A DNA stretch of 31,427 nucleotides from a virus (Duplodnaviria; Heunggongvirae; Uroviricota; Caudoviricetes): the IMG/VR virus record IMGVR_UViG_2667527789_000018, positions 1-31,427 of that record; one strand, written 5' to 3'. A model generated the notes under the pieces. It saw nothing but the letters and a program-made list of their open reading frames with translations. It was not told the origin of the DNA and did not search any database. A program made the translations under genes and the position numbers. Of this stretch, positions 3,238-24,876 are shown one piece after another; positions within the stretch are counted from its first letter, which is position 1, and every line of letters begins with the position of its first letter.

Positions 3238-3509
3238 GTATTCGTATTGAAATTGGCGAACGTTATGTCGTTACCAGTGACAGCTTTCAGTTTATTCTCC
3301 ACGAGAAAAAGAGAGCGGAAAGCGGTAAAAACGCCGGTCAGGAATGGCTGGCGGTGGTTGGTTATTACCCGAAATTAAGCCAGCTCGTTTCCGGCCTGAT
3401 GCATCACGATATTCTGACCGGAAGCGCAAAATCTTTTGCCGATTTAAACGCGCAGGTTGAGCAACTCAGCAAGCGTTGTTCAAAGGCTTTTGGCTCACAT
3501 GGCCGTTAA
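3234..3509 (+). CDS. hypothetical early protein (P2 orf83 position)
   Basis: 91-aa ORF; its stop overlaps the start of the replication gene (ATGGCCGTTAA). Confidence 0.6.
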   Translation: MSIRIEIGERYVVTSDSFQFILHEKKRAESGKNAGQEWLAVVGYYPKLSQLVSGLMHHDILTGSAKSFADLNAQVEQLSKRCSKAFGSHGR

Positions 3510-5784
3510 AGCCTCCGGGCGTTTTGTCCCTCCGTCAGCATTTGCCGCAGGCACCGGTAAGGCGTTTACTGGTGCTTATGCATGGAACGCGCCACGCGAG
3601 GCTGTCGGGCGCGAAAGACCCCTTACACGTGACGAGATGCGTCAGGTGCAAGGTGTTTTATTCACGATTAACCGCCTGCCTTACTTTTTGCGCTCGCTGT
3701 TTACTTCACGCTATGACTACATCCGGCGCAATAAAAGCCCGGTGCACGGGTTTTATTTCCTCACATCCACTTTTCAGCGTCGTTTATGGCCGCGCATTGA
3801 GCGCGTGAATCAGCGCCATGAAATGAACACCGACGCGTCGTTGCTGTTTCTGGCAGAGCGTGACCATTATGCGCGTCTGCCGGGGATGAATGACAAGGAA
3901 CTGAAAAAGTTTGCCGCCCGTATCTCATCGCAGCTTTTCATGATGTATGAGGAACTCTGCGATGCATGGGTTGATGCACATGGCGAGAAAGAATCGCTGT
4001 TTACGGATGAGGCTCAGGCGCATCTGTATGGTCATGTTGCTGGCGCTGCACGAGCTTTCAATATTTCCCCTCTCTACTGGAAAAAATACCGTAAAGGACA
4101 GATGACCACGAGGCAGGCATATTCTGCCATTGCCCGTCTGTTTAACGATGAGTGGTGGACTCATCAGCTTAAAGGTCAGCGTATGCGCTGGCATGAGGCG
4201 TTACTGATTGCTGTCGGGGAGGTGAATAAAGACCGTTCTCCTTATGCCAGTAAACATGCCATTCGTGATGTGCGTGCGCGCCGCCAGGCAAATCTGGAAT
4301 TTCTTAAATCGTGTGACCTTGAAAACAGGGAAACCGGCGAGCGCATCGACCTTATCAGTAAGGTGATGGGAAGTATTTCTAATCCTGAAATTCGCCGGAT
4401 GGAGCTGATGAACACCATTGCCGGTATTGAGCGTTACGCCGCCGCAGAGGGTGATGTGGGGATGTTTATCACGCTGACCGCGCCGTCAAAGTATCACCCG
4501 ACACGTCAGGTCGGAAAAGGCGAAAGTAAAACCGTCCAGCTAAATCACGGCTGGAACGATGAGGCATTTAATCCAAAGGATGCGCAGCGTTATCTCTGCC
4601 GCATCTGGAGCCTGATGCGCACGGCATTCAAGGATAATGATTTACAGGTCTACGGTTTGCGTGTCGTCGAGCCACACCACGACGGAACGCCGCACTGGCA
4701 TATGATGCTTTTTTGTAATCCACGTCAGCGTAACCAGATTATCGAAACCATGCGTCGCTACGCGCTCAAAGAGGATGGCGACGAAAGAGGAGCCGAGCGA
4801 AACCGTTTTCAGGCGAAACACCTTAACCGGGGCGGTGCTGCGGGGTATATCGCGAAATACATTTCAAAAAATATCGACGGCTATGCACTGGATGGTCAGC
4901 TCGATAACGATACCGGCAGACCTCTGAAAGATACTGCCGCGGCTGTTACTGCATGGGCGTCAACGTGGCGCATCCCGCAATTTAAAACGGTTGGTCTGCC
5001 GACAATGGGGGCTTACCGTGAACTACGCAAATTGCCTCGCGGCGTCAGCATTGCTGATGAGTTTGACGAACGCGTCGAGGCTGCACGCGCTGCCGCAGAC
5101 AGTGGCGATTTTGCGTTGTATATCAGTGCGCAGGGTGGGGCAAATGTCCCGCGCGATTGTCAGACTGTCAGGGTCGCCCGTAGTCCGTCGGATGAAGTTA
5201 ACGAGTACGAGGAAGAAGTCGAGAGAGTGGTCGGCATTTACGCGCCGCATCTCGGCGCGCGTCATATTCATATCACCAGAACGACGGACTGGCGCATTGT
5301 TCCGAAAGTGCCGGTCGTTGAGCCTTTGACTTTAAAAAGCGGCATCGCCGCGCCTCGGAGTCCTGTCAATAACTGTGGAATGCTCACCGGTGGTGATACT
5401 TCGTTACCGGCTCCCACACCTTCTGAGCACGCCGCAGCAGTGCTTAATCTGGTTGATGACGGAGTTATCGAATGGAATGAGCCGGAGGTCGTGAGGGCGC
5501 TCAGGGGCGCATTAAAACACGGCCTGAGAACACCTAATCGTCAGCAAAGAAACGGAAGCCCGTTAAAACAGCATGAAATAGCGCCATCGGCCAGACTGAC
5601 CCGGTCGGAACGAATGCAAATCACCCGTATCCGTGTTGACCTTGCTCAGAACGGTATCAGGCCGCAGCGATGGGAGCTTGAGGCGCTGGCGCGTGGCGCG
5701 ACCGTAAATTATGACGGGAAAAAATTCACGTATCCGGTCGCTGATGAGTGGCCGGGATTCTCAACGGTAATGGAGTGGATATAA
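3499..5784 (+). CDS. A: rolling-circle replication initiator endonuclease gpA
   Basis: First ATG at 3499 (MAVKASGRF) gives 761 aa, the P2 A length I recall; HUH-type motif HWHMMLF and tandem-tyrosine motif YIAKYISK seen in the translation. The tracked ORF begins at an upstream TTG (3457). Confidence 0.9.
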   Translation: MAVKASGRFVPPSAFAAGTGKAFTGAYAWNAPREAVGRERPLTRDEMRQVQGVLFTINRLPYFLRSLFTSRYDYIRRNKSPVHGFYFLTSTFQRRLWPRIERVNQRHEMNTDASLLFLAERDHYARLPGMNDKELKKFAARISSQLFMMYEELCDAWVDAHGEKESLFTDEAQAHLYGHVAGAARAFNISPLYWKKYRKGQMTTRQAYSAIARLFNDEWWTHQLKGQRMRWHEALLIAVGEVNKDRSPYASKHAIRDVRARRQANLEFLKSCDLENRETGERIDLISKVMGSISNPEIRRMELMNTIAGIERYAAAEGDVGMFITLTAPSKYHPTRQVGKGESKTVQLNHGWNDEAFNPKDAQRYLCRIWSLMRTAFKDNDLQVYGLRVVEPHHDGTPHWHMMLFCNPRQRNQIIETMRRYALKEDGDERGAERNRFQAKHLNRGGAAGYIAKYISKNIDGYALDGQLDNDTGRPLKDTAAAVTAWASTWRIPQFKTVGLPTMGAYRELRKLPRGVSIADEFDERVEAARAAADSGDFALYISAQGGANVPRDCQTVRVARSPSDEVNEYEEEVERVVGIYAPHLGARHIHITRTTDWRIVPKVPVVEPLTLKSGIAAPRSPVNNCGMLTGGDTSLPAPTPSEHAAAVLNLVDDGVIEWNEPEVVRALRGALKHGLRTPNRQQRNGSPLKQHEIAPSARLTRSERMQITRIRVDLAQNGIRPQRWELEALARGATVNYDGKKFTYPVADEWPGFSTVMEWI

Positions 5785-5895
5785 TGGCAAAAATTCACGA
5801 GATCTTAGATAGTTTCGTACTGTATATATTTAGTTGTTACTTGCAGTTTGGTATTGTTTGCCATGGTTGTTTGTTAAGTGCTTTAAAGGTGAGGA

Positions 5896-7734
5896 ATGAG
5901 CGAGTTCGATGTTTTTTCTATTTCAGTTGATGATTTTAAAAAAAGTGAGTACGCCAGTATATTGTTACCACCAAGAAGCCATTCTTATTTTGAAATGGAA
6001 TCTTATTTTTTTCAGTTGTTGTCATTTTATAAGCAAAAAAAAGATGTGAGTTCTTGGAGGGTTTGCTATTTATTACGTTCGTTATTTAGTTTAAAATTTT
6101 CTAAGTCTGGTGATATTATCGACTTTGAGTCTAAAATCATTCTCTATCCTAAGCGAGGTTATAGACCTTCAGATTACAAGGATAATTATTTAACCATATT
6201 AACTTGTATTAAAGAAAATACTGACAACCCTTATATTATATCTAGGGTGTGTGATGTTTTATGGATAAATAACCGTAAGGATATAGATTCTGCTAATAAA
6301 GCAATAGAGTCATATGCTCTAATGATTAATGATGCTTGTGATACTTTGTTAGAAAAAAAGGAATCAGGTGACATCCATGTTTTTGATGTCGTTGACTGCT
6401 TGGATAGAGGTATTACAATATCGCGCATGCTTATTGGCAGGAAAAAACAACTGCAAGGAGGGATAGTTGACTCGACGTTAAGGCTATATCATATATTAAT
6501 AGATTCTAGTATATTTATCGGTGTTTTAAGAATTTCTGAAATTCTTTATAAGAATAATTTATTGTGCCCCTTACAATTGGCTAAGAATGCAGAAAAGATA
6601 GCTGATGAGCATTGTGGAGCTTCTTATTTTGATGCTGTGAAAAAATTGTTTTATTTTGCGTCTGAATTATATGTTAAAAATGATATGGAAGAGCAAGGAA
6701 GAAGGTGCAAAATGAAAGCGACAGAAATAACATTGGCTCAATTTGAACAGTCTTCATCTCCAACATTGAAGGCTCATTGGCTAAGAGTTGCTCTTGGGGA
6801 ATTTAGAGCGATTGGTGGAATGAGTGAAAGGATTAAAGAGATTAAAGAGGAATTAAATTCTATTCGAGATCAAATCAATGATGAAATGTATTCCTTTGCA
6901 ATACCAATGGATCTTAGTGATGTTATCGCTCAGAAAGAGCATATTTATAATCAATTAAATTTCTCAGAAATAATTAAAAAATTAATCTCTAGATTTAAGG
7001 TTGTAAGTGCCAGTGAGATTATGGAAAGAGCTCGCTCTGATGCTAAGAGATATTTTTTTGTTAATGTGAGTGATACGGTTTTTTATGATGACAGAGGACG
7101 CGTTGTGGCAAGGCAACCACCTTTAGATTCTGCTGGGGATATAAGTCTAGATGATGCCTGTGTAAATTATTTAAGAACTAGTAATATTGAGCATCAGTTT
7201 TATGTTTATGGTGAGTTTGAAGTTGTTAGGCAAAGAGTGTTGTCTAGGTATTCATTAAATGAGAATACATTTGACCCAATCTCACAACAAAGTCTATTTG
7301 TTCCTCCTGGGTATGCGGAAATATTTTCTTTAGGATTTCTTAAGCTTTGGCAGGGGGATTATGTGTCTGCCTGTTATTTGTTGTTGCCGCAGTTGGAGAA
7401 TTCAATTAGATGGATTTTAGAATTAAGAAGAAAAGAAACAACGAAAATAGATGTGTCACTTTTTGAGGAGGCTACTAGTCTATCTCAAATGCTTGCAAAT
7501 TATAAGAGTGAAATGGAAGGTATTTTTGGGAGTGATCATGTATTGACTATGGATTTATTGTTCAATATGAAAGGTGGTGCTGCAATTAGACACACGATGG
7601 CTCATGGCAGGTATACTGTAAATCATTGTTATCAACCAACTTCAGTTTTTGCCTGTGTCTTTATCTTTTATTTAACTTGTTTGCCTTTATTTAGTGTATG
7701 GGAAGATAAAGTTGAACCTTATCTGACTGATTAA
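5896..7734 (+). CDS. AT-rich accessory (cargo) protein of unknown function, 612 aa; candidate anti-phage defence protein
   Basis: ATG 5896 preceded by AGGTGAGGA; about 32% G+C in a 60-nt sample versus about 57% in phage genes; occupies the tin/old position of P2; no P-loop; C-terminal R-x4-H motif (AIRHTMAHGRY). Confidence 0.8.
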   Translation: MSEFDVFSISVDDFKKSEYASILLPPRSHSYFEMESYFFQLLSFYKQKKDVSSWRVCYLLRSLFSLKFSKSGDIIDFESKIILYPKRGYRPSDYKDNYLTILTCIKENTDNPYIISRVCDVLWINNRKDIDSANKAIESYALMINDACDTLLEKKESGDIHVFDVVDCLDRGITISRMLIGRKKQLQGGIVDSTLRLYHILIDSSIFIGVLRISEILYKNNLLCPLQLAKNAEKIADEHCGASYFDAVKKLFYFASELYVKNDMEEQGRRCKMKATEITLAQFEQSSSPTLKAHWLRVALGEFRAIGGMSERIKEIKEELNSIRDQINDEMYSFAIPMDLSDVIAQKEHIYNQLNFSEIIKKLISRFKVVSASEIMERARSDAKRYFFVNVSDTVFYDDRGRVVARQPPLDSAGDISLDDACVNYLRTSNIEHQFYVYGEFEVVRQRVLSRYSLNENTFDPISQQSLFVPPGYAEIFSLGFLKLWQGDYVSACYLLLPQLENSIRWILELRRKETTKIDVSLFEEATSLSQMLANYKSEMEGIFGSDHVLTMDLLFNMKGGAAIRHTMAHGRYTVNHCYQPTSVFACVFIFYLTCLPLFSVWEDKVEPYLTD

Positions 7735-7895
7735 TGGAAGTTGATTTAGGTATTTTGGCATTTATCTTTCTGCGTGCAATATGTGCATGGTTTTGCATGT
7801 GCCGGAGTTGCATGTTCCGGCCGTGCGTCCGCCAGAACGGGCGTGGCTCAAAAGCGGTATTGCACCTGCATTAAAAACACCCCATGAAGCGGGCG

Positions 7896-7914
7896 GGCGA
7901 GGCGGGGAAAGCAC
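7896..7914. other. cos: cos cohesive-end sequence (P2-type 19-nt overhang)
   Basis: GGCGAGGCGGGGAAAGCAC at 7896-7914 matches the P2 cohesive-end sequence as I remember it; lies 170 bp from the portal gene stop, where P2 cos is expected. Confidence 0.6.
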
Positions 7915-8083: not shown

Positions 8084-9118
8084 TCAGCCGTTGTCAGTGT
8101 CCAGTGAGTAGTTTTTAAAGCGGATGACCTCCTGACCGAGCCAGCCGTTTATTTCCCGAATTCTGTCCTGTAACGGGATAAGCTCATTGCGGACAAAGAC
8201 CTTTGCCACTTTCTCAATATCTCCCAGTGACCCGACGTTCTCCGGCTTGCCGCCCATCAACTGAAAGGGGATACGGTGCGAGTCCAGCAGGTCAGCGGTG
8301 CTGGCTTTTTTGATATTAAAAAAATCGTCCTTCGTTGCCACTTCACTGAGCGGGATAATTTTAATGCCGTCGGCTTTTCCCTGCGGGGCATAGAGAAACA
8401 GATTTTTAAAGTTGTTGCGGCCTTTCGACTTGACCATGTTTTCGCGAAGCATTTCGATATCGTTGCGATCCTGCACGGCATCAGTGACGTACATGATGTA
8501 TCCGGCATGTGCGCCGTTTTCGTAATACTTGCGGCGGAACAGCGTGGCTGACTCATTCAGCCAGGCAGAGTTAAGGGCGCTGAGATATTCCGGCATGCCG
8601 TACAGCTCCTGATTAATATCCGGCTCCAGCAGATGAAACACGGAGCCGGGCGCGAAGGCTGTCGGCTCGTTGAAGGACGACACCCACCAGTAAACATCCT
8701 CCTCCACGCCACGGCGGGTATATTTTGCCGGTGAGGTTTCCAGTCTGATGACCTTACCGGTGGTGCTGTAACGCTTTTCCAGAAACGCATTACCGAACAC
8801 CAGAAAATCCAGCACAAAGCGGCTGAAATCCTGCTGAGAAAGCCACGGATGCGGAATAAACGTTGAAGCCAGAATATTGCGTTTAACGTAAATCGGCGAG
8901 CTGTGATGCACGGCAGCACGCAGGCTTTTTGCCAGACCGGTAAAGCTGACCGGTGGCTCATACCATCTGCCGTTACTGATGCACTCGACGTAATCCAGAA
9001 TGTCACGGCGGTCGAGAACCGGCACCGGCTCGCCAAAGGTGAATGCCTCCATTTTCGGTGCACTGGCGGTCATTGTTTTTGCCGCAGGTTGCGGTGTTTT
9101 CCCTTTTTTCTTGCTCAT
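8084..9118 (-). CDS. Q: portal protein gpQ
   Basis: 344 aa (P2 Q length as recalled); leftward operon Q-P next to cos; start ATG overlaps P stop (ATGA on minus strand). Confidence 0.9.
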   Translation of the reverse strand: MSKKKGKTPQPAAKTMTASAPKMEAFTFGEPVPVLDRRDILDYVECISNGRWYEPPVSFTGLAKSLRAAVHHSSPIYVKRNILASTFIPHPWLSQQDFSRFVLDFLVFGNAFLEKRYSTTGKVIRLETSPAKYTRRGVEEDVYWWVSSFNEPTAFAPGSVFHLLEPDINQELYGMPEYLSALNSAWLNESATLFRRKYYENGAHAGYIMYVTDAVQDRNDIEMLRENMVKSKGRNNFKNLFLYAPQGKADGIKIIPLSEVATKDDFFNIKKASTADLLDSHRIPFQLMGGKPENVGSLGDIEKVAKVFVRNELIPLQDRIREINGWLGQEVIRFKNYSLDTDNG

Positions 9119-19756: not shown

Positions 19757-22012
19757 ATGAGCACAAAATTCAAAACCGTTATCACCACTGCCGGTGCAGC
19801 AAAGCTGGCAGCGGCAACCGCACCGGGAGGGCGGAAGGTCAACATTACCACGATGGCCGTCGGGGATGGCGGTGGTAAATTGCCTGTCCCGGATGCCGGA
19901 CAGACCGGGCTTATCCACGAAGTCTGGCGACATGCGCTGAACAAAATCAGTCAGGACAAACGAAACAGTAATTATATTATCGCAGAGCTGGTTATTCCGC
20001 CGGAGGTGGGCGGTTTCTGGATGCGTGAGCTTGGCCTGTACGATGATGCGGGAACGTTAATTGCCGTGGCGAACATGGCCGAAAGTTATAAGCCAGCTCT
20101 TGCCGAAGGTTCAGGGCGTTCGCAGACCTGCCGCATGGTCATCATCGTCAGCAGTGTGGCCTCAGTGGAGCTGACCATTGACACCACAACGGTGATGGCG
20201 ACGCAGGATTACGTTGATGACAAAATTGCAGAGCACGAACAGTCACGACGTCACCCGGACGCCTCGCTGACCGCAAAAGGTTTTACTCAGTTAAGCAGTG
20301 CGACCAACAGCACGTCTGAAATGCTGGCCGCAACGCCAAAAGCCGTTAAGACGGTAATGGATGAAACGAACAAGAAAGCGCCATTAAACAGCCCTGCACT
20401 GACCGGCACGCCAACGACGCCAACTGCGCGACAGGGAACGAATAATACTCAGATCGCAAACACGGCTTTCGTTATGGCCGCGATTGCCGCCCTTGTAGAC
20501 TCGTCGCCTGACGCACTGAATACGCTGAACGAGCTGGCGGCGGCGCTGGGCAATGACCCGAATTTTGCTACCACCATGACTAATGCGCTTGCGGGTAAGC
20601 AACCGAAAGATGCTACCCTGACGGCGCTGGCGGGGCTTGCTACTGCGGCAGACAGGTTTCCGTATTTTACGGGGAATGATGTTGCCAGCCTGGCAACCCT
20701 GACAAAAGTCGGGCGGGATATTCTGGCTAAATCGACCGTTGCCGCCGTTATCGAATATCTCGGTTTGCAGGAAACGGTAAATCAGGCTTCTGGCGCATTG
20801 CAGAAAAATCAGAACGGCGCGGATATTCCTGATAAAGATCGCTTCCTGAGTAACATTAATGTTTACAGCAAAGGCGAGGTGGATAAGAAAAAAGGAATGC
20901 GGCAGTACGTATTTAACGCGCCGTCTAATGCTGTTGGTGGAAAGTGGTATCCAGTTATTTTCCGGCGTTCCACTGGTAGCACTGGCGAACTGGCTTCCAG
21001 AGTGGTTATTACAACCACATCTGCCGGTGGTGATTACGCAATGAATAACTGCGAATTTAATGGAATGGTAATGCCCGGAGGTTGGACTGATCGTGGTTCA
21101 TATGCAGCAGGTTATTTTTCGACATATCAGACTAATGAGCGCGCAATCCATTCCATTGTAACAAGCCTGAAAGAAGATGATGTATGCAGCGTTTTTTACG
21201 TTGAAGGCAGGGCTTTTCCTGTGCGAGTTTTTGCCGAAGAAGGGCTAACGGTTATTGTTCCAACTCAGGATTATACCGTCGGTCAAACAACATATAAGTG
21301 GGGAGCAACTAATCCCGCGACAGAAAGCACGAACGCACAAGCCATTCTGGATTTTAACAATGGGCGAGGGTTTTATTGTTCTCACTCAATATTCGGTATT
21401 AATGCCATTTTTAGCGGAAATCTGGGGATTGGAACGGCTAATGCCCTGGGGGGAAATTCAATAGTTTTAGGAGATAACGATACTGGGTTTAAACAAAATG
21501 GTGATGGGGTGCTGGATGCTTATGCTAATGGTGTGCATGTATTCCGCTTTAGAAATGGCTCAGCAATATCATTAAAGGGTATTCAAGCTGGGGAAAGTAA
21601 GTTATTCACACTTTCAAGTGCAAATACCGCTGCCCATAATGCATCATTTAACTTGTGGGGAAATTCGTCAAGACCAACTGTTGCAGAGCTTGGTGATGAT
21701 TCAGGCTGGCATTTCTATAGTCAGCGAAATACAGATAACTCGGTGACATTTGCTGTAAACGGTCAGATACAACCAAGCAGCTGGGGTAACATTGATTCCA
21801 GATATGTGAAAGATGTTCGGCTTGGCTCACAGCAATATTATGGTGTGAACAACTGGCAAACATGGAACTTCCAGTGCCCTTCAGGTCATGTATTGTCTGG
21901 TATAAATGTTCAGGATACAGGTTCCAACTCCGCCGATAATATTGCGGGTGTTTATTACAGACCCGTTCAAAAGTATATAAATGGCACATGGTATAATGTA
22001 GCGAGCGTTTAA
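19757..22012 (+). CDS. H: tail fibre protein gpH with divergent, lower-GC C-terminal receptor-binding region
   Basis: 751 aa; conserved N-terminal part ([20 protein letters not shown]...), G+C drops from about 63% (near 19800) to 42-48% (21300-21660); followed by the fibre assembly chaperone. Confidence 0.88.
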
Positions 22013-22013
22013 T

Positions 22014-22541
22014 ATGATGCACTTAAAGAACATAAAAGCGGGTAACGCTAAAACACTGGAACAGTATGAGTTAACAAAGAAGCATGGAGTCATCTGGCTT
22101 TACACTGAAGACGGGAAAAACTGGTATGAGGAAGTGAAGAACTTTCAGTCAGACACAATAAAGATTGTTTACGATGAAAATAATATTATTGTCGCTATCA
22201 CCAGAGATGCTTCAACGCTTAATCCTGAAGGTTTTAGCGTTGTTGAGGTTCCTGATATTACCTCCAACCGACGTGCTGACGACTCAGGTAAATGGATGTT
22301 TAAGGATGGTGCTGTGGTTAAACGGATTTATACGGCAGATGAACAGCAACAACAGGCAGAATCACAAAAGGCCGCGTTACTTTCCGAAGCGGAAAGCGTT
22401 ATTCAGCCACTGGAACGCGCTGTCAGGCTGAATATGGCGACGGATGAGGAATGCGCACGACTGGAGTCATGGGAACGCTACAGCGTTCTGATCAGCCGTG
22501 TGGATCCTGCAAATCCTGAATGGCCGGAAATGCCGCAATAA
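22014..22541 (+). CDS. G: tail fibre assembly chaperone gpG
   Basis: 175 aa immediately after H; C-terminus [23 protein letters not shown] as I recall for P2-family G. Confidence 0.85.
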
Positions 22542-22593
22542 GTTGTATAAGCTCTGGTGTGAGATTACATATCTATGGCACAGAGTAAAGCCT

Positions 22594-22603
22594 AATCTGA
22601 CAG
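22594..22603. repeat. left copy of 10-bp inverted repeat AATCTGACAG flanking the G-FI cargo
   Basis: AATCTGACAG at 22594-22603; its exact reverse complement occurs at 23493-23502. Confidence 0.5.
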
Positions 22604-22762
22604 GCCGCTCTGTGTCTGGAGTAGATTTTAGTAAAGCATTATTTTATTAGTGCAAATTCTAATCAATACATTTTATGTATATGATATCCTGCGGACTTTA
22701 ATGACTTGGTTTAGGCTAACCAGATAACACTGAAGGAATATTTTTGATAATTAAGGTGCGGT

Positions 22763-23356
22763 ATGTTTACTAAGCGACGATTAAAAAATATTAACTGGGA
22801 GGCAAGTTCAGTGATTCTTGCTATGGTTCTCTTTGTTGGAAATATATTTTATACAAATCATCGTGATGATATAAACATGGAGGCTGAGAGAGACAGTATC
22901 AGAACAATGTTTGCATATGAAATCGCTAATAACCATCGCGCTCTCACTTTTCTTGATAAAACGAGACATATTGGCTTTGACGAAAATTCGGAGCATTTTG
23001 TTGGCGAGCCTTTTGCCATTAATGTCAAATCATTAGGGGGACCTCGCTTACAGATTGCATTAAACCAGACTGATAAAGTGTTTAAATCCTACTTCGGCGA
23101 ATTAAGTAAGCTTGATAAAGAGGATGTTACTCTTCTTATGGACTATTACCATGAGCAAAGCATCCTGCTGGAGCGTGTAAAATCTACGTTACAGAAGATG
23201 AAAAGTGGTAATGATATTAAAGTTGATATTGATGGTTACTTATTAGAAGAACACTTCATGAATGAGCTTAATCTTTCTAATATATTGCTTAAACGCTATA
23301 GCTATTTATTATCACAACACGCTAAAGAACATAAAACAAAAGATTTACATAATTGA
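22763..23356 (+). CDS. AT-rich accessory membrane-anchored protein, 197 aa, in the Z/fun hotspot; candidate superinfection-exclusion or defence protein
   Basis: About 32% G+C in a 60-nt sample; N-terminal hydrophobic helix (SSVILAMVLFVGNIFY) then a charged soluble domain; occupies the G-FI intergenic slot where P2 carries Z/fun. Confidence 0.7.
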   Translation: MFTKRRLKNINWEASSVILAMVLFVGNIFYTNHRDDINMEAERDSIRTMFAYEIANNHRALTFLDKTRHIGFDENSEHFVGEPFAINVKSLGGPRLQIALNQTDKVFKSYFGELSKLDKEDVTLLMDYYHEQSILLERVKSTLQKMKSGNDIKVDIDGYLLEEHFMNELNLSNILLKRYSYLLSQHAKEHKTKDLHN

Positions 23357-23492
23357 TAATCTGCTAATGGTTATTCATGGGGTAACTATGTTTTATATGT
23401 AATCCAGCTCAGATGAATTATTGATTCTGGATAATAACCGCAGAGCGGCATATACCCTGACAGGCAAATGTCCGCTTCTTGCTCAAAGCAGA

Positions 23493-23502
23493 CTGTCAGA
23501 TT
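23493..23502. repeat. right copy (inverted) of 10-bp repeat AATCTGACAG
   Basis: CTGTCAGATT at 23493-23502 is the reverse complement of 22594-22603; additional CTGWCAG copies at 23457-23463 and 23526-23532. Confidence 0.5.
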
Positions 23503-23544
23503 TGATAACTTTTGGGCTATGTAAACTGTCAGTCGGAAAATGAG

Positions 23545-23562
23545 TGTGTACAAATCAGGACA
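23545..23562 (+). promoter_or_regulatory. candidate Ogr-dependent late promoter element (TGT-N12-ACA dyad) for the FI operon
   Basis: TGT(23545-23547)-N12-ACA(23560-23562), about 130 bp upstream of the FI start; P2 late promoters carry a TGT-N12-ACA dyad near -55. Confidence 0.35.
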
Positions 23563-23685
23563 GGCGGGCGAATTGCCCGCATTTTCTTTATCTGTTGTTT
23601 CATCCACTGACCAGCCAGGTCAAATAGCGTCTCATGCTCTGCACAACAGAAAATAGTTGCACCCATTAACCACGGAGTTAAACGG

Positions 23686-24876
23686 ATGAGTGACTATCAT
23701 CACGGCGTGCAGGTGCTGGAGATTAACGACGGCACCCGCGTCATTTCCACCGTATCCACGGCCATTGTCGGCATGGTCTGCACGGCCAGCGATGCAGATG
23801 CGGAAACCTTCCCCCTCAATAAACCGGTGCTGATTACCAATGTGCAGAGCGCAATTGCAAAGGCCGGTAAAAAAGGCACGCTGGCGGCATCGTTGCAGGC
23901 CATCGCTGACCAGTCAAAACCGGTCACCGTTGTCGTGCGCGTGGAAGACGGCACCGGCGACAATGAGGAAACGAAACTCGCGCAGACCGTTTCCAATATC
24001 ATCGGCACCACCGACGAAAACGGTCAGTACACCGGACTAAAAGCCCTGCTGGCGGCGGAGTCGGTAACCGGTGTTAAACCGCGTATTCTCGGTGTGCCGG
24101 GACTGGATACCAAAGAGGTGGCTGTTGCACTGGCATCCGTCTGTCAGAAGCTGCGCGCTTTCGGGTATATCAGCGCATGGGGCTGTAAAACCATTTCCGA
24201 GGTGAAAGCCTACCGTCAGAATTTCAGCCAGCGTGAGCTGATGGTCATCTGGCCGGATTTCCTCGCATGGGATACGGTCACCAGTACCACCGCCACCGCG
24301 TATGCCACCGCCCGTGCGCTGGGGCTGCGCGCTAAAATCGACCAGGAGCAGGGCTGGCATAAAACGCTGTCCAATGTCGGGGTGAACGGTGTTACCGGCA
24401 TCAGCGCCTCTGTATTCTGGGATTTGCAGGAGTCCGGTACTGATGCTGACCTGCTTAACGAGTCAGGCGTCACAACGCTGATTCGCCGCGACGGTTTCCG
24501 CTTCTGGGGTAACCGTACCTGCTCTGATGACCCGCTGTTCCTCTTTGAAAACTACACCCGCACCGCGCAGGTGCTGGCCGATACGATGGCTGAGGCGCAC
24601 ATGTGGGCGGTGGACAAGCCCATCACCGCAACGCTGATTCGCGACATCGTTGACGGCATCAATGCCAAATTCCGAGAGCTGAAAACAAACGGCTATATCG
24701 TGGATGCGACCTGCTGGTTCAGCGAAGAATCCAACGATGCGGAAACCCTCAAGGCCGGAAAACTGTATATCGACTACGACTATACACCGGTGCCTCCTCT
24801 TGAAAATCTGACCCTGCGCCAGCGTATTACCGATAAATACCTGGCAAATCTGGTCACCTCGGTTAACAGCAATTAA
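23686..24876 (+). CDS. FI: contractile tail sheath protein gpFI
   Basis: 396 aa; GGAG SD; followed by the tail tube gene. Confidence 0.92.
   Translation: MSDYHHGVQVLEINDGTRVISTVSTAIVGMVCTASDADAETFPLNKPVLITNVQSAIAKAGKKGTLAASLQAIADQSKPVTVVVRVEDGTGDNEETKLAQTVSNIIGTTDENGQYTGLKALLAAESVTGVKPRILGVPGLDTKEVAVALASVCQKLRAFGYISAWGCKTISEVKAYRQNFSQRELMVIWPDFLAWDTVTSTTATAYATARALGLRAKIDQEQGWHKTLSNVGVNGVTGISASVFWDLQESGTDADLLNESGVTTLIRRDGFRFWGNRTCSDDPLFLFENYTRTAQVLADTMAEAHMWAVDKPITATLIRDIVDGINAKFRELKTNGYIVDATCWFSEESNDAETLKAGKLYIDYDYTPVPPLENLTLRQRITDKYLANLVTSVNSN

Follow-up and report, generated by a model that had tools for sequence, protein, structure and literature searches.

A DUF7380-DUF4209 protein with a HEPN domain as candidate abortive-infection cargo of a P2-like prophage

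The window analyzed here is the whole 31,427-nucleotide (nt) stretch of IMG/VR record IMGVR_UViG_2667527789_000018 (Caudoviricetes), and our subject is a 612-amino-acid (aa) protein encoded in it between the replication gene (gene A, gpA) and the cos site of a P2-like prophage. The C-terminal domain of this protein is well supported as a HEPN domain of the DUF4209 (C6orf70/ERMARD) family, and by analogy with other HEPN proteins we infer that it acts as a ribonuclease (RNase) and that the protein serves in anti-phage defense. The reading we favor, and hold to be somewhat probable, is that of an auto-inhibited, trigger-activated HEPN RNase that would abort infection and that is carried as stand-alone cargo of the gpA-cos hotspot.

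The active-site residues carry the HEPN assignment. HEPN RNase sites are recognized by an Rx4-6H motif, a polar residue (N, D, or H) directly after its arginine, and an upstream acidic residue within Ex3[KR] (PMC3710099), and the window protein has all three, as R565-x4-H570, H566, and E501/R505. In an alignment of 121 homologs that are 19-88% identical to the window protein, from which all conservation figures given here derive, no columns other than E501, R565, and H570 are invariant, and R505 (98%), G571 (98%), and H566 (82%) are conserved as well. An initial annotation, made from the DNA letters alone, had noticed the R-x4-H within the peptide AIRHTMAHGRY (aa 563-573) and called it compatible with a HEPN RNase but short and weak. 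The HEPN reading stands and the reservation does not, because a motif that is invariant across the family is far beyond a chance match; poor conservation among homologs, which that annotation had said would count against the idea, was not seen, with R565 and H570 present in 100% of sequences.

Assignment to DUF4209 is transitive, via full-length homologs, because the window protein itself misses the Pfam model. Two such homologs pass the DUF4209 gathering score of 22.3 bits (P0006, 49% identical, 26.1 bits; P0007, 28% identical, 25.4 bits), with matches that fall at the region aligned to the C-terminal domain of the window protein, and the homolog from E. coli S88, discussed below, scores 19.5 bits against the same threshold. 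DUF4209 is the C6orf70 HEPN family, which is predicted to be active, has Rx4-6H conserved, and is known for TPR fusions and for operons related to restriction-modification (R-M) (PMC3710099). The N-terminal part matches Pfam DUF7380 (PF24098; aa 8-184, 93 bits vs a gathering score of 27), the only Pfam family returned. The PADLOC check that the initial annotation had proposed likewise gave a single result, in PADLOC-DB v2, where both hidden Markov models (HMMs) of the candidate system PDC-S39 match (246.5 and 231.7 bits; best 1.4e-73) over aa 8-599 of the protein and profile positions 7-583 of 595, i.e., the full-length match to a single-gene system by which PDC-S39 is defined. In PHROGs the protein is phrog_5183, of unknown function, and NCBIfam has no match for it. 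The earlier statement that it cannot be assigned to a named family is thus superseded, as DUF7380 plus DUF4209, PDC-S39, and phrog_5183 all apply. Named HEPN families of abortive infection (Abi), i.e., ApeA, AbiJ, and AbiD/F, gave no HMM match in PADLOC-DB v2 or Pfam, and the claim that the protein is not an Old-type ATPase was upheld by the lack of a Walker A motif ([AG]x4GK[ST]) and of any ATPase or TOPRIM match in Pfam or PADLOC.

The family is large. A HMMER search of 1.84 billion representatives returned, counted as clusters at 50% identity, 3,708 with E<=0.001 and 1,118 with E<=1e-30, with named members from Alpha-, Beta-, and Gammaproteobacteria; among the best 150 matches, most are 590-660 aa long and align end to end, and the remainder are mostly truncated. 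The ratio of nonsynonymous to synonymous substitution rates (dN/dS) is ~0.22 against alleles of 88% and 76% identity, and purifying selection acts on the gene from end to end. Together with thousands of full-length homologs, this ratio establishes the 612-aa open reading frame (ORF) as a real gene.

An AlphaFold2 model of the full-length protein, built on the 121-sequence alignment (predicted local distance difference test score 94.9; predicted template modeling score 0.85), is almost wholly helical, with three small hairpins, and its modeled C-terminal domain has the helical-bundle HEPN fold and matches solved HEPN domains; sequence searches of the PDB with single-family profiles gave no match. 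Each chain holds one HEPN domain, as N-terminal, middle, and C-terminal profiles compared by hhalign showed no internal homology, and a second, degenerate HEPN in the N-terminus, which would make a Cas13-like internal dyad, was rejected at <=2% probability between sub-profiles. HEPN RNases act independently of metal ions, produce 2',3'-cyclic phosphate ends, and typically form dimers that have a composite site. Conservation peaks in the HEPN domain and is lowest at aa 1-60 and 151-270 across the family and at aa 1-90 and 301-415 among close alleles. Within DUF7380, R87, D93, R117, D120, W123, Y140, and R171 are near-invariant (91-99% of the 121), and these residues could line a pocket for a ligand or trigger or form an interface that restrains the HEPN domain. 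The last HEPN helix (aa 583-601; 7639-7698) is strikingly hydrophobic within the E. coli (enterobacterial) clade though not in the family at large, with a Kyte-Doolittle value of 2.17 vs a family median of 1.26. A C-terminal transmembrane anchor here was rejected as a family feature, since 105 of the 121 members have a charged residue in the segment and the model places the last HEPN helix there, and on the model we read the segment as a probable core helix. Separately, all of the seven closest relatives have C578, C587, and C595.

The gene lies in a well-defined slot (Table 1). By blastn, homology to the P2 reference AF063097 stops at 5801, restarts at 7867, and goes on to the cosR 19-mer, and the AF063097 interval between the same boundaries holds orf91, tin, and old; because the first six codons of orf91 remain, the left junction falls just within that gene. 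G+C content is 33.2% in the 612-aa ORF, vs 53.4% in gene A, 52.2% in the portal gene, and 57.1% in the terminase gene. The initial annotation had described an ORF at 5896-7734 with a strong Shine-Dalgarno sequence, between the replication gene and cos where P2 has orf91-tin-old, and had taken it for horizontally acquired single-gene cargo of the hotspot. The ORF listing and sequence inspection confirm the ORF and the Shine-Dalgarno, the AF063097 alignment confirms the placement, and composition, the P2 alignment, and the identical locus of E. coli RM11911 support the acquisition; the G+C contrast it gave (32% vs 57%) was about right, although closer to 33% vs 52-57%. In RM11911, a locus 100% identical to that of the window belongs to a P2-like prophage integrated beside cpxP, and RefSeq names the product, encoded between the replication endonuclease and portal genes, "DUF7380 domain-containing protein". 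Position 1 of the window is the end of the integrase coding sequence (CDS) of this prophage beside cpxP (locus L001), so the window apparently comprises, in essence, a complete P2-like prophage. The GenBank record AM157366 (P2-EC46; sequenced 2006), 92% identical, carries the gene as "ORF612", with a ribosome-binding site annotated at the equivalent position, and this ORF was reportedly first sequenced by Odegrip and co-workers in 2006. The P2 tin/old slot itself is an experimentally documented defense hotspot (PMC9122126; PMC9519451).

Table 1. Features of the cargo gene and its surroundings, in positions of the window
Feature	Position	Strand	Remark
P2 gene A (replication endonuclease), left hotspot anchor	3457-5784	+	96% nt identity to P2 gene A up to 5801
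Promoter-like candidate TTCTCA-16-TATAAT, 10/12	5758-5785	+	Overlaps gene A stop; in sequence that P2 also has
P2 orf91 remnant, first six codons (MAKIHE)	5784-5801	+	Marks left recombination junction
AT-rich cargo insert, ~2.07 kb, 33% G+C, in place of P2 orf91-tin-old	5802-7866		blastn boundaries vs AF063097
Shine-Dalgarno-like AAGGTGAGG	5886-5894	+	Immediately 5' of the ATG of the 612-aa gene
612-aa CDS, DUF7380 / TPR-like solenoid / HEPN (DUF4209)	5896-7734	+	ATG start; PADLOC candidate PDC-S39
DUF7380 domain, aa 8-184	5917-6447	+	Pfam PF24098
Helical-repeat (TPR-like) middle region, aa 185-415, most variable part	6448-7140	+	Presumed sensor/regulatory module
HEPN domain core, aa ~470-611	7303-7728	+	Pfam DUF4209 region of homologs
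E501-N-S-I-R505, E-x3-[KR] motif of HEPN active sites	7396-7410	+	
R565-H-T-M-A-H570, R-x4-H motif	7588-7605	+	Polar H566 after R
P2-type cos 19-mer (cosR) GGCGAGGCGGGGAAAGCAC, right hotspot landmark	7896-7914	+	Exact; AF063097 33575-33593, annotated cosR
Portal gene Q, right hotspot anchor	8084-9118	-	ORF listing; RM11911 annotation

The initial annotation had also proposed a survey of what occupies this locus in related prophages, and family members indeed recur both in the P2-type slot and in defense islands. A locus search of IMG/VR based on a seven-sequence alignment found relatives on 22 viral contigs, and 15 of the 22 carry the gene, in matching orientation, between gpA and gpQ; one contig ends before gpA, and the other six are other viral contigs. 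In the gpA-gpQ slot there are at least four divergent alleles (88%, 76%, 52%, and 33-35% identity). The S88-type allele has its left junction at 5751, vs 5801 for the window allele, which points to a separate exchange event. Window-type locus DNA is matched by 45 of 5,426 complete E. coli genomes, 21 of which cover >=80% of the locus while the others are partial and may share only flanking sequence; the S88 type is in 55 complete genomes, and both alleles together reach roughly 1-2%.

Neighborhoods of eight distant homologs have no conserved partner gene. Three lie in the gpA-portal slot of other P2-like elements (52%, 31%, and 31% identical) and five elsewhere. In one degraded P2-like remnant (L008, 8001-12431), a 31%-identical member adjoins a PARIS-like pair (AAA_15/AAA_21 plus DUF4435), so that this hotspot holds two candidate or known defense cassettes. 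In a decayed P2-like element (L005; 9849-10760 and 14579-15628), an additional 303-aa ORF that matches no Pfam family comes after the 52% allele, and the tail genes harbor an inserted GmrSD_N (type IV restriction-like) gene. On an integrase-bearing island (L004, 10265-17857), a 28%-identical homolog lies directly upstream of a QatABCD-like operon (KAP NTPase, QatB, and TatD), with a RES-Xre pair on its other side and an SNase gene and an MmeI-type R-M gene also on the island. Other neighbors include an nSTAND NTPase, Mrr-type nucleases, SNIPE plus a BrxC-like gene, and integrases.

The family is already catalogued as a defense candidate by three independent published approaches. The first, PADLOC, lists it among 145 candidates (PDCs) embedded in BREX, DISARM, or type I R-M loci (Payne et al. 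2024, bioRxiv 10.1101/2024.01.29.577857), and membership of PDC-S39 does not establish function, because PDC-S39 is a candidate by guilt-by-embedding only. In a survey of the P2 locus that covered 18,150 occurrences (PMC9122126), Rousset et al. 2022 have the exact window protein (WP_042964140) in their P2-hotspot supplementary table. Their "DUF4209" system #55 (76 occurrences; labeled DUF4209 in Table S5B) is represented by the 88% allele, and their "DUF4209" system #13 (193 occurrences) matches the S88 type over the part of its sequence that was compared. DefensePredictor predicts three E. coli "DUF4209 domain-containing proteins" to be novel defense genes (log-odds 4.3-8.1); these have only remote similarity to AbiJ (HHblits probability 62-67%) and are absent from the table of tested units.

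Several points weigh against a defense role. Rousset et al. cloned the S88 gene (pFR103, "Putative HEPN", WP_000997854) with its native promoter in a low-copy pSC101 vector in MG1655 and challenged it with eight coliphages, and it is listed only among the "additional tested systems", not the validated ones. The S88 protein (610 aa) shares 33% identity with the window protein over the full length (E 2e-114) and matches the same PDC-S39 models, and its negative result lowers our confidence in the defense claim. We found no published defense phenotype for any family member (DUF7380, DUF4209, PDC-S39, or ERMARD plus HEPN) and no published phage-challenge test of the window allele. Among the cargo of the P2 hotspot are also partition systems and a cytolethal distending toxin (PMC9122126), and location in a slot with such non-defense genes is by itself no proof of defense. 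As to the domain, the window protein gives no match to Pfam DUF4209 (PF13910) even at E<=1. The S88 negative does not exclude defense, because eight phages are a small panel and many validated defense systems act on one or two phages only.

By analogy with validated single-protein HEPN defenses, we propose that auto-inhibition and cue-activated RNA cutting would operate as follows. In a lysogen, little of the protein would be made, and its own N-terminal two thirds would hold it inactive. When a competing phage infects the cell, the N-terminal module would sense a phage protein or an infection-induced state, and this would permit or rearrange self-association so that two HEPN domains could form the composite, metal-independent RNase site. 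Cellular and/or phage RNA (tRNA, rRNA, or mRNA) would then be cut, leaving 2',3'-cyclic phosphate ends, and the resulting stop in translation would abort the infection and protect the prophage-carrying population. A more tentative extension, which we think possible but rather doubtful, is that the DUF7380/TPR-like/HEPN family forms a class of single-protein abortive-infection sensors in which the solenoid would recognize a specific phage protein and switch on the HEPN RNase, with narrow phage specificity for each allele. Such specificity would explain the negative result of one allele on eight phages.

A genuine HEPN protein might instead have a non-defense role in prophage or host RNA metabolism, stress response, or lysogenic conversion, an explanation that we rate as unlikely, though the most serious of the rivals. 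Eukaryotic HEPN proteins process or degrade particular transcripts (Las1, Ire1, and, by prediction, ERMARD), DUF4209 includes eukaryotic housekeeping-type members (PMC3710099), and the lack of reported protection by the S88 homolog against eight phages, like the non-defense cargo of the P2 hotspot, would fit. The gene is also co-oriented with the early operon, whereas tin and old are transcribed oppositely in P2, and lytic-growth expression is therefore possible. However, the neighborhoods of distant homologs hold mostly restriction, Qat, PARIS, SNIPE, nSTAND, and integrase genes rather than genes of RNA metabolism, and the distribution is patchy, as seen in the 45 of 5,426 genomes for the window allele group. 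Exchange of AT-rich cassettes with different junctions is typical of accessory conflict genes, and three independent computational screens have flagged the family as defense.

That the S88 test covered eight unrelated coliphages only also fits a protein directed at other mobile elements (P4-like satellites, plasmids, or related P2-like phages) or an addiction toxin against prophage loss or takeover. At least one P2-hotspot system acts on P2 relatives (PMC9122126), P2 and P4 have cos in common and compete, the gene is <165 bp from cos, and several homologs adjoin integrases on non-phage islands; yet there is no antitoxin-like partner, the adjacent small ORFs are not conserved, and no RNA antitoxin candidate emerged (no Rfam match, no tandem repeats), so that we judge this explanation improbable. 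Least likely, and in our estimate very improbable, is a HEPN domain that serves only as a binding or scaffold module, like MtlR or nucleotidyltransferase-associated HEPN. Catalysis has been lost in some HEPN families, but these characteristically lose Rx4-6H (PMC3710099), whereas R565, H570, and E501 are invariant here, and it is this invariant active site that ranks the non-catalytic alternative last; moreover, the C6orf70 family, with its conserved motif, is predicted to be catalytically active (Anantharaman et al. 2013, PMC3710099). The auto-inhibited abortive-infection RNase remains our preferred reading.

The sequence flanking the gene yielded no companion. No partner gene is found inside the 5802-7866 insert, and two small ORFs were rejected as partner or antitoxin: a 46-aa ORF (7734-7874) that overlaps the stop of the 612-aa gene is interrupted by an in-frame stop in the 76% allele, and a 48-codon ORF (about 5784-5930, +) is what remains of the beginning of P2 orf91. 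In a different frame, this latter ORF spans the Shine-Dalgarno and codons 1-12 of the 612-aa gene; it probably arose as a by-product of recombination, and it could translationally couple the 612-aa gene to gene A. An RNA antitoxin or other noncoding RNA at the cargo locus was likewise rejected (no Rfam match at E<=1, no meaningful tandem repeats), and an adjacent MNT, RnlB- or Dmd-like, or RNA antitoxin, as expected of a HEPN/MNT or RnlA-type toxin-antitoxin module, is absent. For the lysogen expression that the initial annotation had assumed, the promoter-like site in Table 1 is the only sign, and it is not evidence of function, because the region is not enriched for such sites (10 observed vs 8.1 +/- 3.3 expected).

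A weak flanking direct repeat (5850 and 7749) reported in the initial annotation did not survive scrutiny as an insertion scar. Both strings are present, but they differ by an indel and the resemblance is at chance level: the repeat search missed the pair, and the 2.4 kb around the cargo gene hold 19 two-copy direct-repeat families of 11-23 nt that equal or outdo it by chance. The gapped pattern has 3 matches in the window vs 0.57 expected. The sequence TTGCATGT(G/T)CCGG occurs in two neighboring copies (7793-7820, +; 12/13 identical, 15 nt apart) between the cargo gene and cos, in a region common to some Peduovirus records and not found in the P2 reference, and the pair could be a packaging or regulatory element.

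Elsewhere in the window, a 197-aa ORF (22763-23356, +) with no Pfam or PADLOC match lies in a second patch of low G+C (0.34-0.45, about 20800-23700), between a tail-fiber assembly gene (22014-22541, Caudo_TAP) and the tail sheath gene (23686-24876). It sits in the Z/fun slot, the second P2 defense hotspot (Vassallo et al. 2022, PMC9519451).

If the protein proves active against phages, PDC-S39 (DUF7380 plus DUF4209), an abundant candidate, would become a validated defense family, and a design of TPR-like sensor plus HEPN would join the single-protein abortive-infection systems. The activity and control of a bacterial RNase of this kind would provide the first functional model for the human ERMARD (C6orf70) HEPN family, and prophage biology would gain a further example of a single effector family with several divergent alleles that take turns in the P2 cargo slot. 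Inactivity against phages would make the gene a useful negative case for guilt-by-location methods.

Among known systems, PDC-S39 is matched over its full length, as a single gene, and shows no structural difference from the window protein. The S88 "Putative HEPN" shares the gpA-portal slot, the orientation, a near-equal length, and the DUF7380 plus DUF4209 architecture, and differs as a divergent allele with another left junction (5751 vs 5801). With the C6orf70 (ERMARD) HEPN family, the protein has in common the Rx4H motif, the polar residue after its arginine, the upstream Ex3R, the TPR-like fusion, and R-M neighbors, whereas eukaryotic members have a transmembrane segment and a predicted location in the endoplasmic reticulum (PMC3710099) and the bacterial protein looks soluble. 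P2 Old and Tin occupy the same gene A-cos locus as lysogenic-conversion exclusion genes, but they have no sequence or domain relationship to the window protein, which is in the opposite orientation and without Walker A or TOPRIM. In its plan of one polypeptide with a non-catalytic module and one HEPN domain, it resembles ApeA, AbiJ, AbiF/AbiD, HEC-08 (DUF3644 HEPN), and DS-11 (CBS-HEPN), all of which have accessory domains other than its DUF7380 plus TPR-like part; in HEC-08 and DS-11, defense is lost on mutating the histidine of Rx4-6H or other catalytic residues.

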